This document shows positions 818 to 3,985 of a stretch of DNA of 64,000 nt, piece after piece. The stretch is from Phage NC-G: the sequence record MK310184. One strand, given 5' to 3'. The notes below the pieces were generated by a model that was given only the letters and a program-made list of their open reading frames with translations, was not told the origin of the DNA and did not search any database. Each line of letters opens with the position of its first letter. Position 1 is the first letter of the stretch. A program made the position numbers and the translations under genes.

Positions 818-919
818 CTTTTTAAAGTGTGCCGCTATTAAACCAATAGCTAAGCCTGTTGCCAGGCCTAGGATAACAGCAAAGATACAGAGTAACAAGA
901 ACTCGACTCCAAGGCTCAT
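815..919 (-). CDS. small hydrophobic peptide (34 aa)
   Basis: ATG overlaps gene 52 stop (ATGA), GGAGG RBS, hydrophobic MSLGVEFLLLCIFAVILGLATGLAIGLIAAHFKK; below track size cut-off. Confidence 0.35.
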   Translation of the reverse strand: MSLGVEFLLLCIFAVILGLATGLAIGLIAAHFKK

Positions 920-2295
920 AGAGCCTCCAAATCTTTAACATACTCAGTTACAACATCAGTGGTTTTCCAGTATTGATGCTCTTCTTTCTTGGCCTTGGCT
1001 TCCAAAGCCAGTTTCTTAGCTTCATCGGACGTGATATGGAAAATGTTCATTGCTACGAGTTTATCGGCATATTCACCATAGACTTTATTGCTGGCCAATT
1101 CTTCGGTTAAAACCTTACGGGTCTTACCTTGGATAACCACTACACCATCAATAACATCTTTAATGAATGTAGCTTTGGCCAATGCCAGTTTGAAAGCTTC
1201 TTCGGTTTCGATGATTTTACCATCAATACGTTTTTGTACAAAGGTCTTACGGACCTCAACGAAATCACGAATCAGTTCAACTACATCTTCGTAAACCTTA
1301 AGTTTACCTTTTTCATTAATGACGGTCAGGTTTTGCGAACGACGTTCGATTAACCCAAAGTCCTTCATGATTTTTTCGTGCTTCTTATTTTCTTCAGTAG
1401 GCAATTCGTATTCTTTACGAATCTTAACCTTGAAGCCGAAACCATTCTCGTCACAGTCGTCATCATACGTGATATACCCTTTGTCTTCTAAAGGGTCCAG
1501 AACCTTAGCTACATACGTTTCACGGTCATATTTGTACGGGATTTCTGTGATATGCATTTGGGTTCGAGATGTGAATTTATACGTTCCACGAATCTCATAA
1601 CTACCCGGTTCAATCTCAACCACATCACCACGGAATTCCGGATAAGCCACCTTAGGCTTGGTTACGCGTTTTTCTTGAAGAACCTGCAATACAGCTTTCT
1701 TAACAGAATCAAAACTATGAGGAAGAATATTAGTTGCATAACCAGTTGCAATACCGGAAATACCATTAAGAAGAACAGTAGGAATAATAGGCAGATAAAA
1801 AGCTGGTGGCTTATGTTCAACATCCGCATGAACCGGAGCATATTCTGTATCCTTATAAACCTTTGCGAAATTAGTTCCAATACGTGCAAAAATATAACGA
1901 GAGGCTGCAGCCTTTTGAACCAAACGAGAACCAAAGTTACCTTGCCCATCCAACAGTGGGAAGTTGTTGTTCCATGTGTTAGCCATCAAAGCACCTGCTT
2001 CCTGAGCAGAGCCTTCACCATGGTGATATCCAAGGTCGGCTACACCGCCTGCAATAGAAGCTAGTTTGTGGAATTTTTCTTTATTACCACGAGCCATATC
2101 AAGACAACGAGCAACTACAAAACGTTGTACAGGTTTAAAACCGTCAATCATATTTGGAATGGCGCGGTTTTCGACAGTATACATTGCGTAAGCCAGCGCT
2201 TCGTTGTCGATAATGCTTTTTAAGTCACGACGAGTAAAAGCGTCATCGTAAACATCTAAGGATTGTTTAAAAAGGGTATCAATTACATCAGCCAT
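916..2295 (-). CDS. 52: DNA topoisomerase II medium subunit (GyrA-like) gp52
   Basis: 459 aa; DLKSIIDNEALAYAMYTVENRAIPNMIDGFKPVQRF and downstream blocks match recalled T4 gp52. Confidence 0.93.
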   Translation of the reverse strand: MADVIDTLFKQSLDVYDDAFTRRDLKSIIDNEALAYAMYTVENRAIPNMIDGFKPVQRFVVARCLDMARGNKEKFHKLASIAGGVADLGYHHGEGSAQEAGALMANTWNNNFPLLDGQGNFGSRLVQKAAASRYIFARIGTNFAKVYKDTEYAPVHADVEHKPPAFYLPIIPTVLLNGISGIATGYATNILPHSFDSVKKAVLQVLQEKRVTKPKVAYPEFRGDVVEIEPGSYEIRGTYKFTSRTQMHITEIPYKYDRETYVAKVLDPLEDKGYITYDDDCDENGFGFKVKIRKEYELPTEENKKHEKIMKDFGLIERRSQNLTVINEKGKLKVYEDVVELIRDFVEVRKTFVQKRIDGKIIETEEAFKLALAKATFIKDVIDGVVVIQGKTRKVLTEELASNKVYGEYADKLVAMNIFHITSDEAKKLALEAKAKKEEHQYWKTTDVVTEYVKDLEAL

Positions 2296-2299
2296 AATT

Positions 2300-2440
2300 T
2301 TACCATACTAGTGAATGAATAACCATAATAACATCGGAAATAAAAAGCACAACTTGGATAAGACCGAATATTACTCCATAATACAGTGCTACAAATAAAG
2401 CAGCAAGGGCTACAGAGTAGCCCAAGATTTTCTTAATCAT
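2300..2440 (-). CDS. small membrane protein (46 aa)
   Basis: ATG overlaps stop of upstream ORF (ATGATTAA); hydrophobic MIKKILGYSVALAALFVALYYGVIFGLIQVVLF...; ends 5 nt before gene 52 ATG. Confidence 0.35.
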   Translation of the reverse strand: MIKKILGYSVALAALFVALYYGVIFGLIQVVLFISDVIMVIHSLVW

Positions 2441-2594
2441 TTTTAATCATCTTAAGTAAGCCGACAGAAGTAGAAAGCACCCAGCCAATAAACAGAAAAC
2501 TTAAGAATACCGGACCAGGGGTCCACACACCTAAAAAGAAGCAAACTGAACAGACTATAGCCATAATAAGTTCAATAAAAACTAGGATAATCAT
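2433..2594 (-). CDS. small membrane protein (53 aa), ac-position
   Basis: track ORF 2433-2666 trimmed to ATG 2594 with GAGG RBS; two predicted TM segments. Confidence 0.4.
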   Translation of the reverse strand: MIILVFIELIMAIVCSVCFFLGVWTPGPVFLSFLFIGWVLSTSVGLLKMIKND

Positions 2595-2604
2595 ATTTTC
2601 CTCA

Positions 2605-2712
2605 TTAGCGTCCGAAGACGCCTTTAGTTTTAAGATTGATACGATAGAACTGCATCGCATGTTCATTATGGAAATTACTCCGTAATACAGTAGCCCAAGA
2701 TTTCTTAATCAT
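2605..2712 (-). CDS. stp: Stp-like peptide, N-terminally extended paralog (35 aa)
   Basis: ...[24 protein letters not shown] matches recalled T4 Stp; ATG overlaps upstream stop. Confidence 0.45.
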
Positions 2713-2858
2713 TTTTTGGTAAAGGCCTGTAGAATCAGAACAAATGCCAATATGAATTGTGGAATGGCCTGAGAAATGACCGAAGTTTCACCTGTTGTAA
2801 TAGTCCAAATACCTAGATAAGTCCAAATACCCGCAGCAAAACCTTGTAAAATATTCAT
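2709..2858 (-). CDS. small membrane protein (49 aa)
   Basis: ATG 2858 with GAGG RBS overlapping stp stop; hydrophobic; stop overlaps ATG of stp-like paralog. Confidence 0.4.
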
Positions 2859-2865
2859 ATTTTCC

Positions 2866-2946
2866 TCAAGGGCGTCCGAAGACGCCAGTTAATTTCAGAT
2901 TATGACGGTGCCATTGCATCACATGTTCATTATAGAAATTACTCAT
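2866..2946 (-). CDS. stp: Stp peptide (26 aa)
   Basis: [26 protein letters not shown] closely matches recalled T4 Stp [26 protein letters not shown]; ATG overlaps upstream stop. Confidence 0.65.
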
Positions 2947-3112
2947 AGATACCACACATTTTGCATAAACGTTCAAAACAAATATAACCACCACATAAAC
3001 ACATCATGACGGCAACTTTATCATTAAAGGGCATACCGAAAGCCATAAAGGCTCCGGTAACTACTAATGAAGCTAAAACAAATAGATAACCCATTACAAA
3101 GAACGTTCTCAT
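2939..3112 (-). CDS. small Cys-rich membrane protein (57 aa)
   Basis: ATG 1 nt after ndd stop (TAATATG); hydrophobic N-terminus, C-terminal [16 protein letters not shown]. Confidence 0.4.
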
Positions 3113-3113
3113 A

Positions 3114-3563
3114 TTAATAACTCTGTAGAACGAATTTAAAGTTATCAGCCAACATGCGGTTCATTTCTTCCAGGGTCTGAAGGTCGGAACTATGGTTGCG
3201 AGTGAAAGCCATTGCAATTTGACCCTTACCAAAACCTGTAGTCAGTGGTTTCATTTTAGAAGCAGGTACATAAAGAACTTCATACACTACACCGTTCACA
3301 GCCATAGTGCGAGCTGATTGAGAACGTTTCTTACGGATGTTAGCCACAATACCATCAAGACCTTGAGCTGAACGTTGGTTGCCGACATAAAAGCGAGCGG
3401 CTACGACACGAGAATCTGCTTCACCTTTAACAAAGAAGTAGAAGCCTGGCTGGGCAGCGATTTCTTTAGAAGGCTTACCATTTTGGTATTCGCCATTCTT
3501 AACATAAGCAACAGTAGTAGCACCAGCAGACAGAACGTCACGGCGAGTCATATAAGTATTCAT
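3114..3563 (-). CDS. ndd: Ndd nucleoid disruption protein
   Basis: 149 aa; [39 protein letters not shown] blocks match recalled T4 Ndd. Confidence 0.9.
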
Positions 3564-3612
3564 ATCAATTTCCTCAGTAGATTAATGTTTTGTTATCCAG
3601 TCAACGAGAACC

Positions 3613-3641
3613 ATTATAACATGATTCTCGAGGTTGTAAAC
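3613..3641 (-). promoter_or_regulatory. early sigma70-type promoter upstream of ndd
   Basis: -35 GTTTAC (3636-3641), 17-bp spacer, -10 TATAAT (3613-3618), upstream A-tract. Confidence 0.65.
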
Positions 3642-3985
3642 TATTTTTGTAGCTGTTCTAAAATAAATCCGCTCGTATAAAAAGAAGCATTATAAACCTT
3701 GTTCAGCGGGTTCAAAGCACGTCCGTAAGTATCACGTAATTCTTTGATAACGTTTTCATAACTCACGTAGTAAGCACTATGATAACCTGGGTCCATACTC
3801 ATACGAAATTTAATGAACCGATAAAAGCCTGTTTCCGGGTCTTGAACGAAAACGAAATCAGCACTCGTCATAATCTTTGAATGTACGCCGGGAATCATAC
3901 TTTGATTGAATGCCACCGATGCATCCTGAAGGCTGAGTTGTTTAAAGAACATTACCTTAGCATTACCAAAAAATACTTTAGACAT
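3641..3985 (-). CDS. hypothetical protein (114 aa)
   Basis: track ORF, co-oriented and tightly packed; no motif recognised. Confidence 0.55.
   Translation of the reverse strand: MSKVFFGNAKVMFFKQLSLQDASVAFNQSMIPGVHSKIMTSADFVFVQDPETGFYRFIKFRMSMDPGYHSAYYVSYENVIKELRDTYGRALNPLNKVYNASFYTSGFILEQLQK

Follow-up and report, generated by a model that had tools for sequence, protein, structure and literature searches.

The 64,000-nucleotide (nt) window analysed here, one strand of sequence record MK310184 from Phage NC-G, carries two copies of a sequence resembling the T4 gene stp between the genes ndd and 52. Stp is a textbook phage anti-restriction factor that is sensed by the host guard PrrC. We found that only the first copy (stp1) is a free-standing gene, and that the second (stp2) begins inside a joint with a 5′ fragment of gene 52.1 (denoted 52.1′). 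On the comparisons presented below, the locus is probably a recombination scar, left when two alternative gene cassettes were stacked, in which the relic stp was re-opened by a deletion in this genome alone. Stp, Ac, gene 52.1 and the T4 gene order were known beforehand; our literature search returned no paper that reports a second stp in phages of the JS98 type.

The window belongs to a JS98-like T-even phage of the genus Dhakavirus. Positions 2200–3650 match 406 phage records and are 97.6% identical to JS98 over 94% of their length, and the DNA of the locus is 96–98% identical to that of the Dhakavirus phages JS98, IME281, EcWhh-1, UP19 and Esco_phi_B-01. All genes from ndd to 52 lie on the minus strand, in the order ndd-p57-Stp1-Ac49-[52.1′::stp2]-53aa-52.1-52 (Table 1). 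As the original prediction had proposed, the region holds two Stp-like open reading frames (ORFs) together with four small ORFs that score as hydrophobic (p57, Ac49, the 53-amino-acid (aa) ORF and 52.1). Both Stp-like ORFs exceed the 25-bit cut-off of PF08133, the Pfam family named 'anticodon nuclease activator', and match PHROG 6763 (Table 1), and the T4 Stp sequence on which that proposal relied agrees with NC_000866. The two stp copies form a direct repeat of 94 nt with 79% identity, and BLASTP matches one copy to the other at E = 4e-12. The suggestion that all of these ORFs are chained by overlapping stop and start codons was too broad, as an overlap is found at three of the seven junctions (p57/Stp1, Ac49/35-aa ORF and 53-aa/52.1) and the remaining gaps measure 1–10 nt. 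The recurring junction that it pointed out is real: the ATGATTAAG repeat is the start of gene 52.1 in duplicate, and ATGATTAAGAAA occurs exactly twice in the 64 kb (2429–2440 and 2701–2712), compared to 0.02 occurrences expected by chance.

Alignments of the window, JS98, IME281, JS10 and T4 define the joint, where the 5′ fragment of gene 52.1 runs into stp at TATTAcGGAGTAAT. Relative to the single-cassette loci of JS10 and T4, the window, JS98 and IME281 contain an extra block made of stp1, Ac49 and the first ~68 nt of gene 52.1. The crossover point between 52.1 and the resident stp lies between ...GTATTAcGGAGTAAT and TTCCATAA..., at a 7-nt microhomology, GAGTAAT (2674–2680), that is common to 52.1 (TATTATGGAGTAAT) and stp (TAATGAGTAAT). 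The start of copy 2 reads as a change from ATG to CGG because that stretch is 52.1 sequence; the copy's own ATG is gone, and its Met1 is replaced by Arg. All members that bear the joint also share a 1-nt deletion within the 52.1′ fragment (AAAA to AAA).

The window differs from these relatives by a specific 31-nt deletion (CGGTAG...AACACT, flanked by ACT), with its own joint near 2688/2689. The 31-nt and 1-nt deletions together take away 32 nt, removing a TAG codon and placing the 52.1′ ATG in frame with stp2, and the result is an ORF of 35 aa to which 52.1′ contributes the ATG and the first 10 codons. Residues 12–35 of this ORF align with positions 2–25 of the PF08133 profile, and the core of copy 2 is identical to T4 Stp at 22 of 25 residues. 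The original prediction had listed copy 2 as a 35-aa Stp with an N-terminal extension; the ORF exists at 2605–2712, but the extension is a frame-shifted piece of gene 52.1. An stp gene of about 26 aa with its own start and ribosome-binding context is not present at copy 2, where the 52.1′ ATG is the only possible start.

The extra 31 nt are retained in all seven records, from five phages, that span the joint (222 nt aligned to a 191-nt query). In JS98 and IME281, whose sequences we read directly, the 52.1′ frame encodes MIKKSWVTR and then meets the TAG, and the stp2 frame offers no ATG, GTG or TTG after the preceding stop. Copy 2 is therefore not translatable in the usual way in these two phages, and it is untranslatable in all five relatives that share the joint (JS98, IME281, EcWhh-1, UP19 and Esco_phi_B-01). 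The in-frame joint was found in none of the 50,697 phage records, IMG/VR, metagenome contigs and GTDB genome contigs; the ancestral 52.1′::stp joint was found in IMG/VR only in JS98 and IME281, and in none of the metagenome contigs. Annotations of the JS98-type relatives leave the stp2 relic unmarked, and that of JS98 marks copy 1. A separate observation concerns the Ac49 TGA stop in JS98 (L001:904-1048) and IME281 (L002:996-1140), which is in frame with the stp2 relic without a stop between them, so that stop-codon read-through there would yield an Ac-Stp fusion.

We then compared substitutions in copy 2 with those among intact genes, using 17 distinct intact stp alleles (the polymorphism counts leave out the window's own allele). 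The intact alleles differ by 21 synonymous and three replacement changes (N15H, L17F and R25K), with no replacement in residues 1–14. The stp2 relics differ from their closest intact alleles by no synonymous and three replacement changes, namely F4S in the JS98 group and V9A and N15I in the window (one-sided Fisher p ~0.007, computed from these counts). Neither A9 nor I15 occurs in Stp among 611 records. Copy 2 does not display the purifying selection on residues 1–18 seen in the intact alleles, and its replacement-only changes fit a relic under relaxed constraint.

Several observations weigh against this account of the locus. The case for relaxed constraint comprises only three substitutions, one of which falls at a residue, N15, that also varies in intact alleles (H in Gaprivervirus and in a Kagunavirus). 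The stp2 divergence between the window and JS98 is 5.3%, which is not above that of the neighbouring genes (0.7–5%). A simple picture of a working Stp1 and a junk stp2 does not predict the private H5Y change in the intact Stp1. The window's 35-aa ORF is intact, its start context is one of proven use and 22 of the 25 Stp residues are retained, and a functional product from it is possible. Finally, no phage with Ac49 in a single cassette turned up as a donor; after the stacked phages, the best matches to Ac49 were Ac homologues of Klebsiella T4-like phages with 49% identity.

In an alternative reading, the second copy is a re-activated effector. Here, the 31-nt deletion was selected for restoring the expression of an Stp-like peptide that starts with 10 new residues and bears V9A and N15I, and this peptide could act with a second anti-restriction specificity, as an inhibitor that does not trigger PrrC, or as a competitor that dampens Stp1-driven PrrC activation. 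One deletion both removes the TAG and restores the frame, and the private H5Y in Stp1 could reflect altered selection once two copies were expressed. The start signals also speak for it: the ATG of the 35-aa ORF overlaps the Ac49 stop as ATGA, and the 16 nt AAAAATGATTAAGAAA at the 52.1′ start are identical to the start region of the true, expressed gene 52.1. Translational coupling of the chimera is therefore plausible, and its sequence suggests that it could be made in this way. However, the event is confined to a single genome, with no other sequence bearing the in-frame joint in the four collections, and about one-third of TAG-removing deletions restore the frame by chance. In addition, V9A lies in the segment of residues 4–14 where Stp loss-of-function mutations cluster (PMC3014915). 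Activity of the 35-aa chimera as Stp appears doubtful because the critical N-terminal part of the peptide now has Arg in place of Met1 and 10 additional residues before it, and because of V9A in that segment. Altogether, we consider selected re-activation unlikely, though it deserves to be taken seriously, and it is unlikely to a similar or slightly greater degree that the chimera is both expressed and active, giving one phage two Stp-type peptides (Stp1 with H5Y and the 35-aa chimera with V9A and N15I). That the deletion, and with it the 35-aa ORF, is an error of sequencing or assembly, or else a meaningless laboratory-stock mutation of a phage truly like JS98, is highly improbable: the deletion is unique to the window and lies between short direct repeats in an already repeated region, but its flanks differ from JS98 at many positions (1–5% per gene), as expected of a distinct genome and not of a mis-assembled JS98, and the sequence bears no sign of error.

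The origin of the two alleles supports the stacking of cassettes. The stp2 sequence differs at two of 75 nt from the intact stp of Ec2-ASingh, the nearest single-cassette relative (ndd 99% identical), stp1 differs at three of 81 nt from the stp of VR7, and the two copies differ from each other at ~20 of 75 nt. Each copy is thus 2–3 nt away from a single-copy allele while the copies are ~20/75 apart, and their divergence is therefore older than the joint. The comparison indicates that the differences came in with two parental phages and did not arise through a post-duplication arms race. The contrast between QFYRNN and QWHRHN, originally offered as the mark of divergence, exists as pre-existing single-copy alleles of separate genera, QWHRHN in the Gaprivervirus phages VR7 and SP18 and QFYRNN in the Dhakavirus JS10 and in T4; copy 2 itself in fact reads QFYRIN. 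The proposed F/Y difference at position 5 was misread, as T4 and copy 2 both have H there and copy 1 has Y.

The original prediction had interpreted the locus as duplication and divergence in an arms race, in which stp was duplicated in place and both peptides are made with different specificities against type Ic enzymes and PrrC. The two PF08133-positive ORFs do stand in tandem, and they differ at residues 5–20, which include the functionally critical segment. However, each copy is nearly identical to a single-copy allele of another lineage, and duplication in place followed by divergence is contradicted by that allele comparison. Moreover, the accompanying cassettes belong to different families (phrog_2501 and phrog_9347), so that neither duplicates the other; the joint deprived copy 2 of its ATG, and this copy is untranslatable in five relatives; the relics show replacement changes only; and an independent stack exists in the phages TH40 and EAWsc9 (described below). 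We accordingly give the in-place arms race hardly any credence.

In the stacking account, copy 1 would be the working gene. The ATG of Stp1 at 2946 overlaps the p57 stop, and this free-standing layout recurs in JS98, TH40 and Ec2-ASingh. Stp1 is identical to T4 Stp, read from NC_000866, at 19 of 26 residues and at 14 of the first 18, where three of the differences belong to the fixed Gaprivervirus allele (F12W, Y13H and N15H) and the fourth is the private H5Y. Like T4 Stp, it is 26 aa long, follows ndd (here ndd/p57), precedes a small membrane-protein gene, passes the family model and retains GVFGR at the C-terminus, a motif whose coding sequence forms the UUCG hairpin. At 25/26 identity the peptide is found by tblastn in 40 records of the 50,697-record collection, most of them from Gapriverviruses (VR7, VR20, VR25, VR26 and SP18), which have no Stp besides this one. 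Y5 is absent from all 40 records, and residue 5 is invariant in all other intact Stp sequences examined. The H5Y change (CAT to TAT, 2932–2934) falls in the 4–14 segment of reported loss-of-function clustering.

T4 Stp binds the type Ic restriction complex, blocks restriction and releases PrrC on prr+ hosts (PMC3014915). Its N-terminal 18 residues are almost invariant, its last eight are largely dispensable, and loss-of-function mutations cluster at residues 4–14 (PMC3014915, section 31). By homology, Stp1 is predicted to be a working anti-restriction peptide that would block type Ic enzymes (EcoprrI and EcoR124I), and on prr+ hosts it would be expected to release the PrrC anticodon nuclease, as T4 Stp does. 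Copy 2 differs from T4 Stp in lacking its own ATG, in its fusion to 10 frame-shifted codons of 52.1 and in carrying V9A and N15I.

The membrane-protein genes that accompany the two copies show what was stacked. In a local tblastn survey of more than 40 loci, the usual layout was ndd-[p57]-stp-(Ac or phrog_9347 protein)-52.1-52. A single slot is thus filled by either Ac (phrog_2501) or the phrog_9347 protein, and loci of the JS98 and TH40/EAWsc9 types alone have the two stacked. Ac49 contains a hydrophobic segment and has the family's characteristics, being a small membrane protein between stp and 52.1 that matches phrog_2501 (E = 4e-20), the PHROG to which T4 Ac itself belongs (E = 2e-25). In T4, ac is the gene for acridine sensitivity or resistance. 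At a minimum of 99% identity it was found only in five JS98-type phages; a donor phage carrying it presumably exists. The 53-aa protein is the resident ac-slot cassette of Dhakavirus and Gaprivervirus, and its family, phrog_9347, also holds the ac-slot proteins of JS10 (53 aa), VR7 (55 aa), TH40 (52 aa) and DCP80. A longer 77-aa ORF (2433–2666) is an upstream extension of the 53-aa ORF that crosses stp2 in a different frame; it was rejected as a real gene in favour of the 53-aa start with its strong Shine-Dalgarno (SD) sequence, and in JS98 and IME281 a stop codon lies ahead of that start. The start of gene 52.1 overlaps the stop of the 53-aa gene, and gp52.1 is 89% identical to that of T4.

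A second stack is present in the Gapriverviruses TH40 and EAWsc9 (L006/L007:1289-1839), whose loci read Stp-[phrog_9347 protein]-[52.1′::stp]-Ac50-52.1. This is an independent event because the order of the cassettes is opposite and the 52.1′::stp joint is elsewhere: 14 codons of 52.1 are fused, out of frame, to stp residues 10–26. A crossover between 52.1 and stp that combines an Ac-family gene with a phrog_9347 gene has thus happened twice. Only the 3′ part of the second stp was kept in TH40 and EAWsc9, together with its hairpin and the SD of the next gene, and in TH40 one hairpin position is changed to a G.U pair. As these phages kept only a truncated, out-of-frame stp, the duplicated stp is probably a by-product of cassette stacking. 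The repeated stacking fits a benefit from carrying both membrane proteins, and it also fits a process in which homologous recombination, very active in these phages, eliminates all stacks except those of dissimilar cassettes.

Taken together, we propose the following series of events. An unequal, microhomology-mediated recombination between two T-even genomes would have stacked two alternative cassettes, each composed of stp and a small membrane-protein gene. The donor parent would have carried stp (Gaprivervirus allele)-Ac49-52.1, and the other parent, a resident Dhakavirus, stp (T4-type allele)-53-aa protein-52.1-52. A crossover at GAGTAAT would have joined the first ~68 nt of the donor 52.1 to codon 2 of the resident stp, and stp2, having lost its ATG and ribosome site at the joint, would then have drifted as a relic. 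In this phage alone, a 31-nt deletion between ACT repeats would have removed the TAG and put the 52.1′ ATG in the stp2 frame. Transcription is expected to run from a promoter upstream of ndd through to gene 52, with Stp1 translated from its own ATG overlapping the p57 stop.

The expression signals are compatible with such a transcript. A promoter-like site upstream of ndd (Table 1) is likely, from its sequence, the start of the ndd-to-52 polycistronic transcript, and no promoter-like site was found on the minus (coding) strand inside 2300–3112. Both stp copies end in a GGCGUC-UUCG-GACGC hairpin followed by the SD sequence GAGGAAAAU and the ATG of the next membrane-protein gene, and the 15-mer GGCGTCTTCGGACGC occurs exactly twice in the 64 kb, compared to ~0 expected. 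In the relic, this hairpin and SD precede the 53-aa gene, and that gene therefore still depends on the 3′ end of stp2 for its translation start region, a need that probably explains why the relic is retained. A search of 2000–3800 with Rfam returned no known RNA element above noise. On the plus strand, both hairpins (2608–2622 and 2871–2886) are followed by T-rich runs and score as terminator-like; six terminator-like sites were found in the region, compared to 1.4 expected, and the plus-strand hairpins might stop antisense transcription.

Table 1. Features of the ndd-to-52 locus, listed from the upstream to the downstream border and followed by expression signals (window coordinates)
Feature	Coordinates	Strand	Evidence
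ndd, nucleoid disruption protein, 149 aa; upstream border	3114..3563	-	97-99% identity to JS98/Ec2-ASingh/dhaeg ndd; 62% to T4 ndd
p57, Cys-rich small membrane protein, 57 aa, phrog_5941	2939..3112	-	PHROG E 1e-21; hydrophobic
Stp1, intact stp gene, 26 aa, Gaprivervirus allele with private H5Y	2866..2946	-	PF08133 51.3 bits; phrog_6763 E 8e-18
Ac49, membrane protein, 49 aa, T4 Ac homologue	2709..2858	-	phrog_2501 E 4e-20
52.1′ relic, gene 52.1 start codon and 5′ fragment	2681..2712	-	Alignment; start-region identity with true 52.1
stp2 relic, resident Dhakavirus stp, codon 2 to stop, with V9A and N15I	2605..2680	-	PF08133 61 bits
35-aa Stp-like ORF (52.1′::stp2 chimera)	2605..2712	-	PF08133 61.0 bits; PHROG 6763 E 6e-17
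53-aa membrane protein, phrog_9347	2433..2594	-	phrog_9347 E 1e-25; SD GAGGAAAAU before ATG at 2594
Gene 52.1, membrane protein, 46 aa, DUF7396	2300..2440	-	PF24129 77.3 bits (cut-off 27); phrog_3595
Gene 52, topoisomerase II medium subunit; downstream border	916..2295	-	–
Sigma-70/early-type promoter-like site upstream of ndd	3613..3640	-	TTTACA-16-TATAAT, 11/12 matches, extended TG
Hairpin GGCGUC-UUCG-GACGCC in stp1 3′ end	2871..2886	-	Fold: local minimum free energy -13.6 kcal/mol, z = -2.5
Second UUCG hairpin copy, in stp2 3′ end	2608..2622	-	Fold and repeat of 15-mer

The arrangement can be compared with three known systems. With the T4 order ndd-stp-ac-52.1-52, the window shares the border genes, the orientation and the translational coupling between the ac-slot gene and 52.1 (a ATGATTAA overlap); the original prediction's description of T4 as having one stp and one ac between ndd and 52 holds for both genes but omits gene 52.1, which also sits between ac and 52. 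In contrast to T4, the window's ac slot is filled twice, by an Ac homologue and an unrelated phrog_9347 protein, with 52.1′::stp between them, and an extra p57 follows ndd. With JS98, IME281, EcWhh-1, UP19 and Esco_phi_B-01, it shares the two-cassette array, the joint and the ancestral 1-nt deletion in 52.1′, whereas these five keep the 31 nt with the TAG and have an untranslatable stp2 with F4S, where the window has an in-frame stp2 with V9A and N15I instead.

The third comparison is with the shuffling described for T4-type phages, in which small non-essential genes in plastic regions are exchanged as cassettes (Arbiol et al. 2010, PMC2839356; Comeau et al. 2014, PMC4122927) with the help of the PeSL, a strong early promoter and terminator stem-loop in intergenic DNA (PMC2839356, PMC4122927). 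Both involve cassette exchange between related phages by recombination at short conserved sequences, including a stem-loop. However, the anchors here are coding sequences (stp and 52.1), and the decisive crossover fell at a 7-nt microhomology of two unrelated genes. PeSL-type shuffling itself was rejected, as the hairpins lie inside stp, have no adjacent promoter and are followed by an SD sequence and not by a U-run.

If the locus is a stacking scar, it illustrates how T-even phages gain accessory genes: unequal recombination between conserved genes to either side stacks the alternative cassettes of a slot, in at least two independent events at this locus, and leaves a hybrid scar. It also cautions that tandem peptide repeats in phages are not always adaptive duplications, and it flags an unannotated stp relic in JS98-type reference genomes. 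The natural Stp variants at reportedly critical residues (H5Y, V9A, F4S and N15I) could offer a means to separate the inhibition of restriction from the triggering of PrrC. Should two peptides be made after all, the inhibition of type Ic restriction could be widened or retuned, or uncoupled from PrrC activation, and an active chimera would be a case of pseudogene resurrection in an anti-defence gene, seen at its origin.

Beyond this locus, stp is found in an unrelated phage. In the Kagunavirus vB_EcoS-Ro145c2YLVW, a siphovirus of 42 kb that is not related to T4, there is an stp gene without annotation (NC_073322.1 3452-3529); it has its own GGAG ribosome site, and its 25-aa product is identical to T4 Stp at 23 of 25 residues. 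The gene has therefore moved between very different coliphages. Weaker matches to Stp occur in Phage K1ind2 and in some T1-like phages. By tblastn, DCP80 (PQ671644.1) and KNP5 (KX452698.1/NC_055713.1) have two Stp-like places per record, the second of which was not located; the ndd-52 locus of DCP80 has a single cassette, and the extra places may reflect terminal redundancy or an assembly artefact.

At the borders of the locus, p57 is an optional cassette between ndd and stp; IME281 lacks it, so that even nearly identical phages differ in having it. Codons 2–3 of stp supply the TAA stop of p57. A tblastn search places p57 just after ndd in 218 phage records, many of them Klebsiella T4-like phages, where p57 is followed directly by an Ac homologue and there is no stp. 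On the opposite side, the 5′ end of gene 52 (2245–2295) includes 51 nt that are present in the window and IME281 and not in JS98, and the encoded N-terminus is longer than that of T4 gp52.

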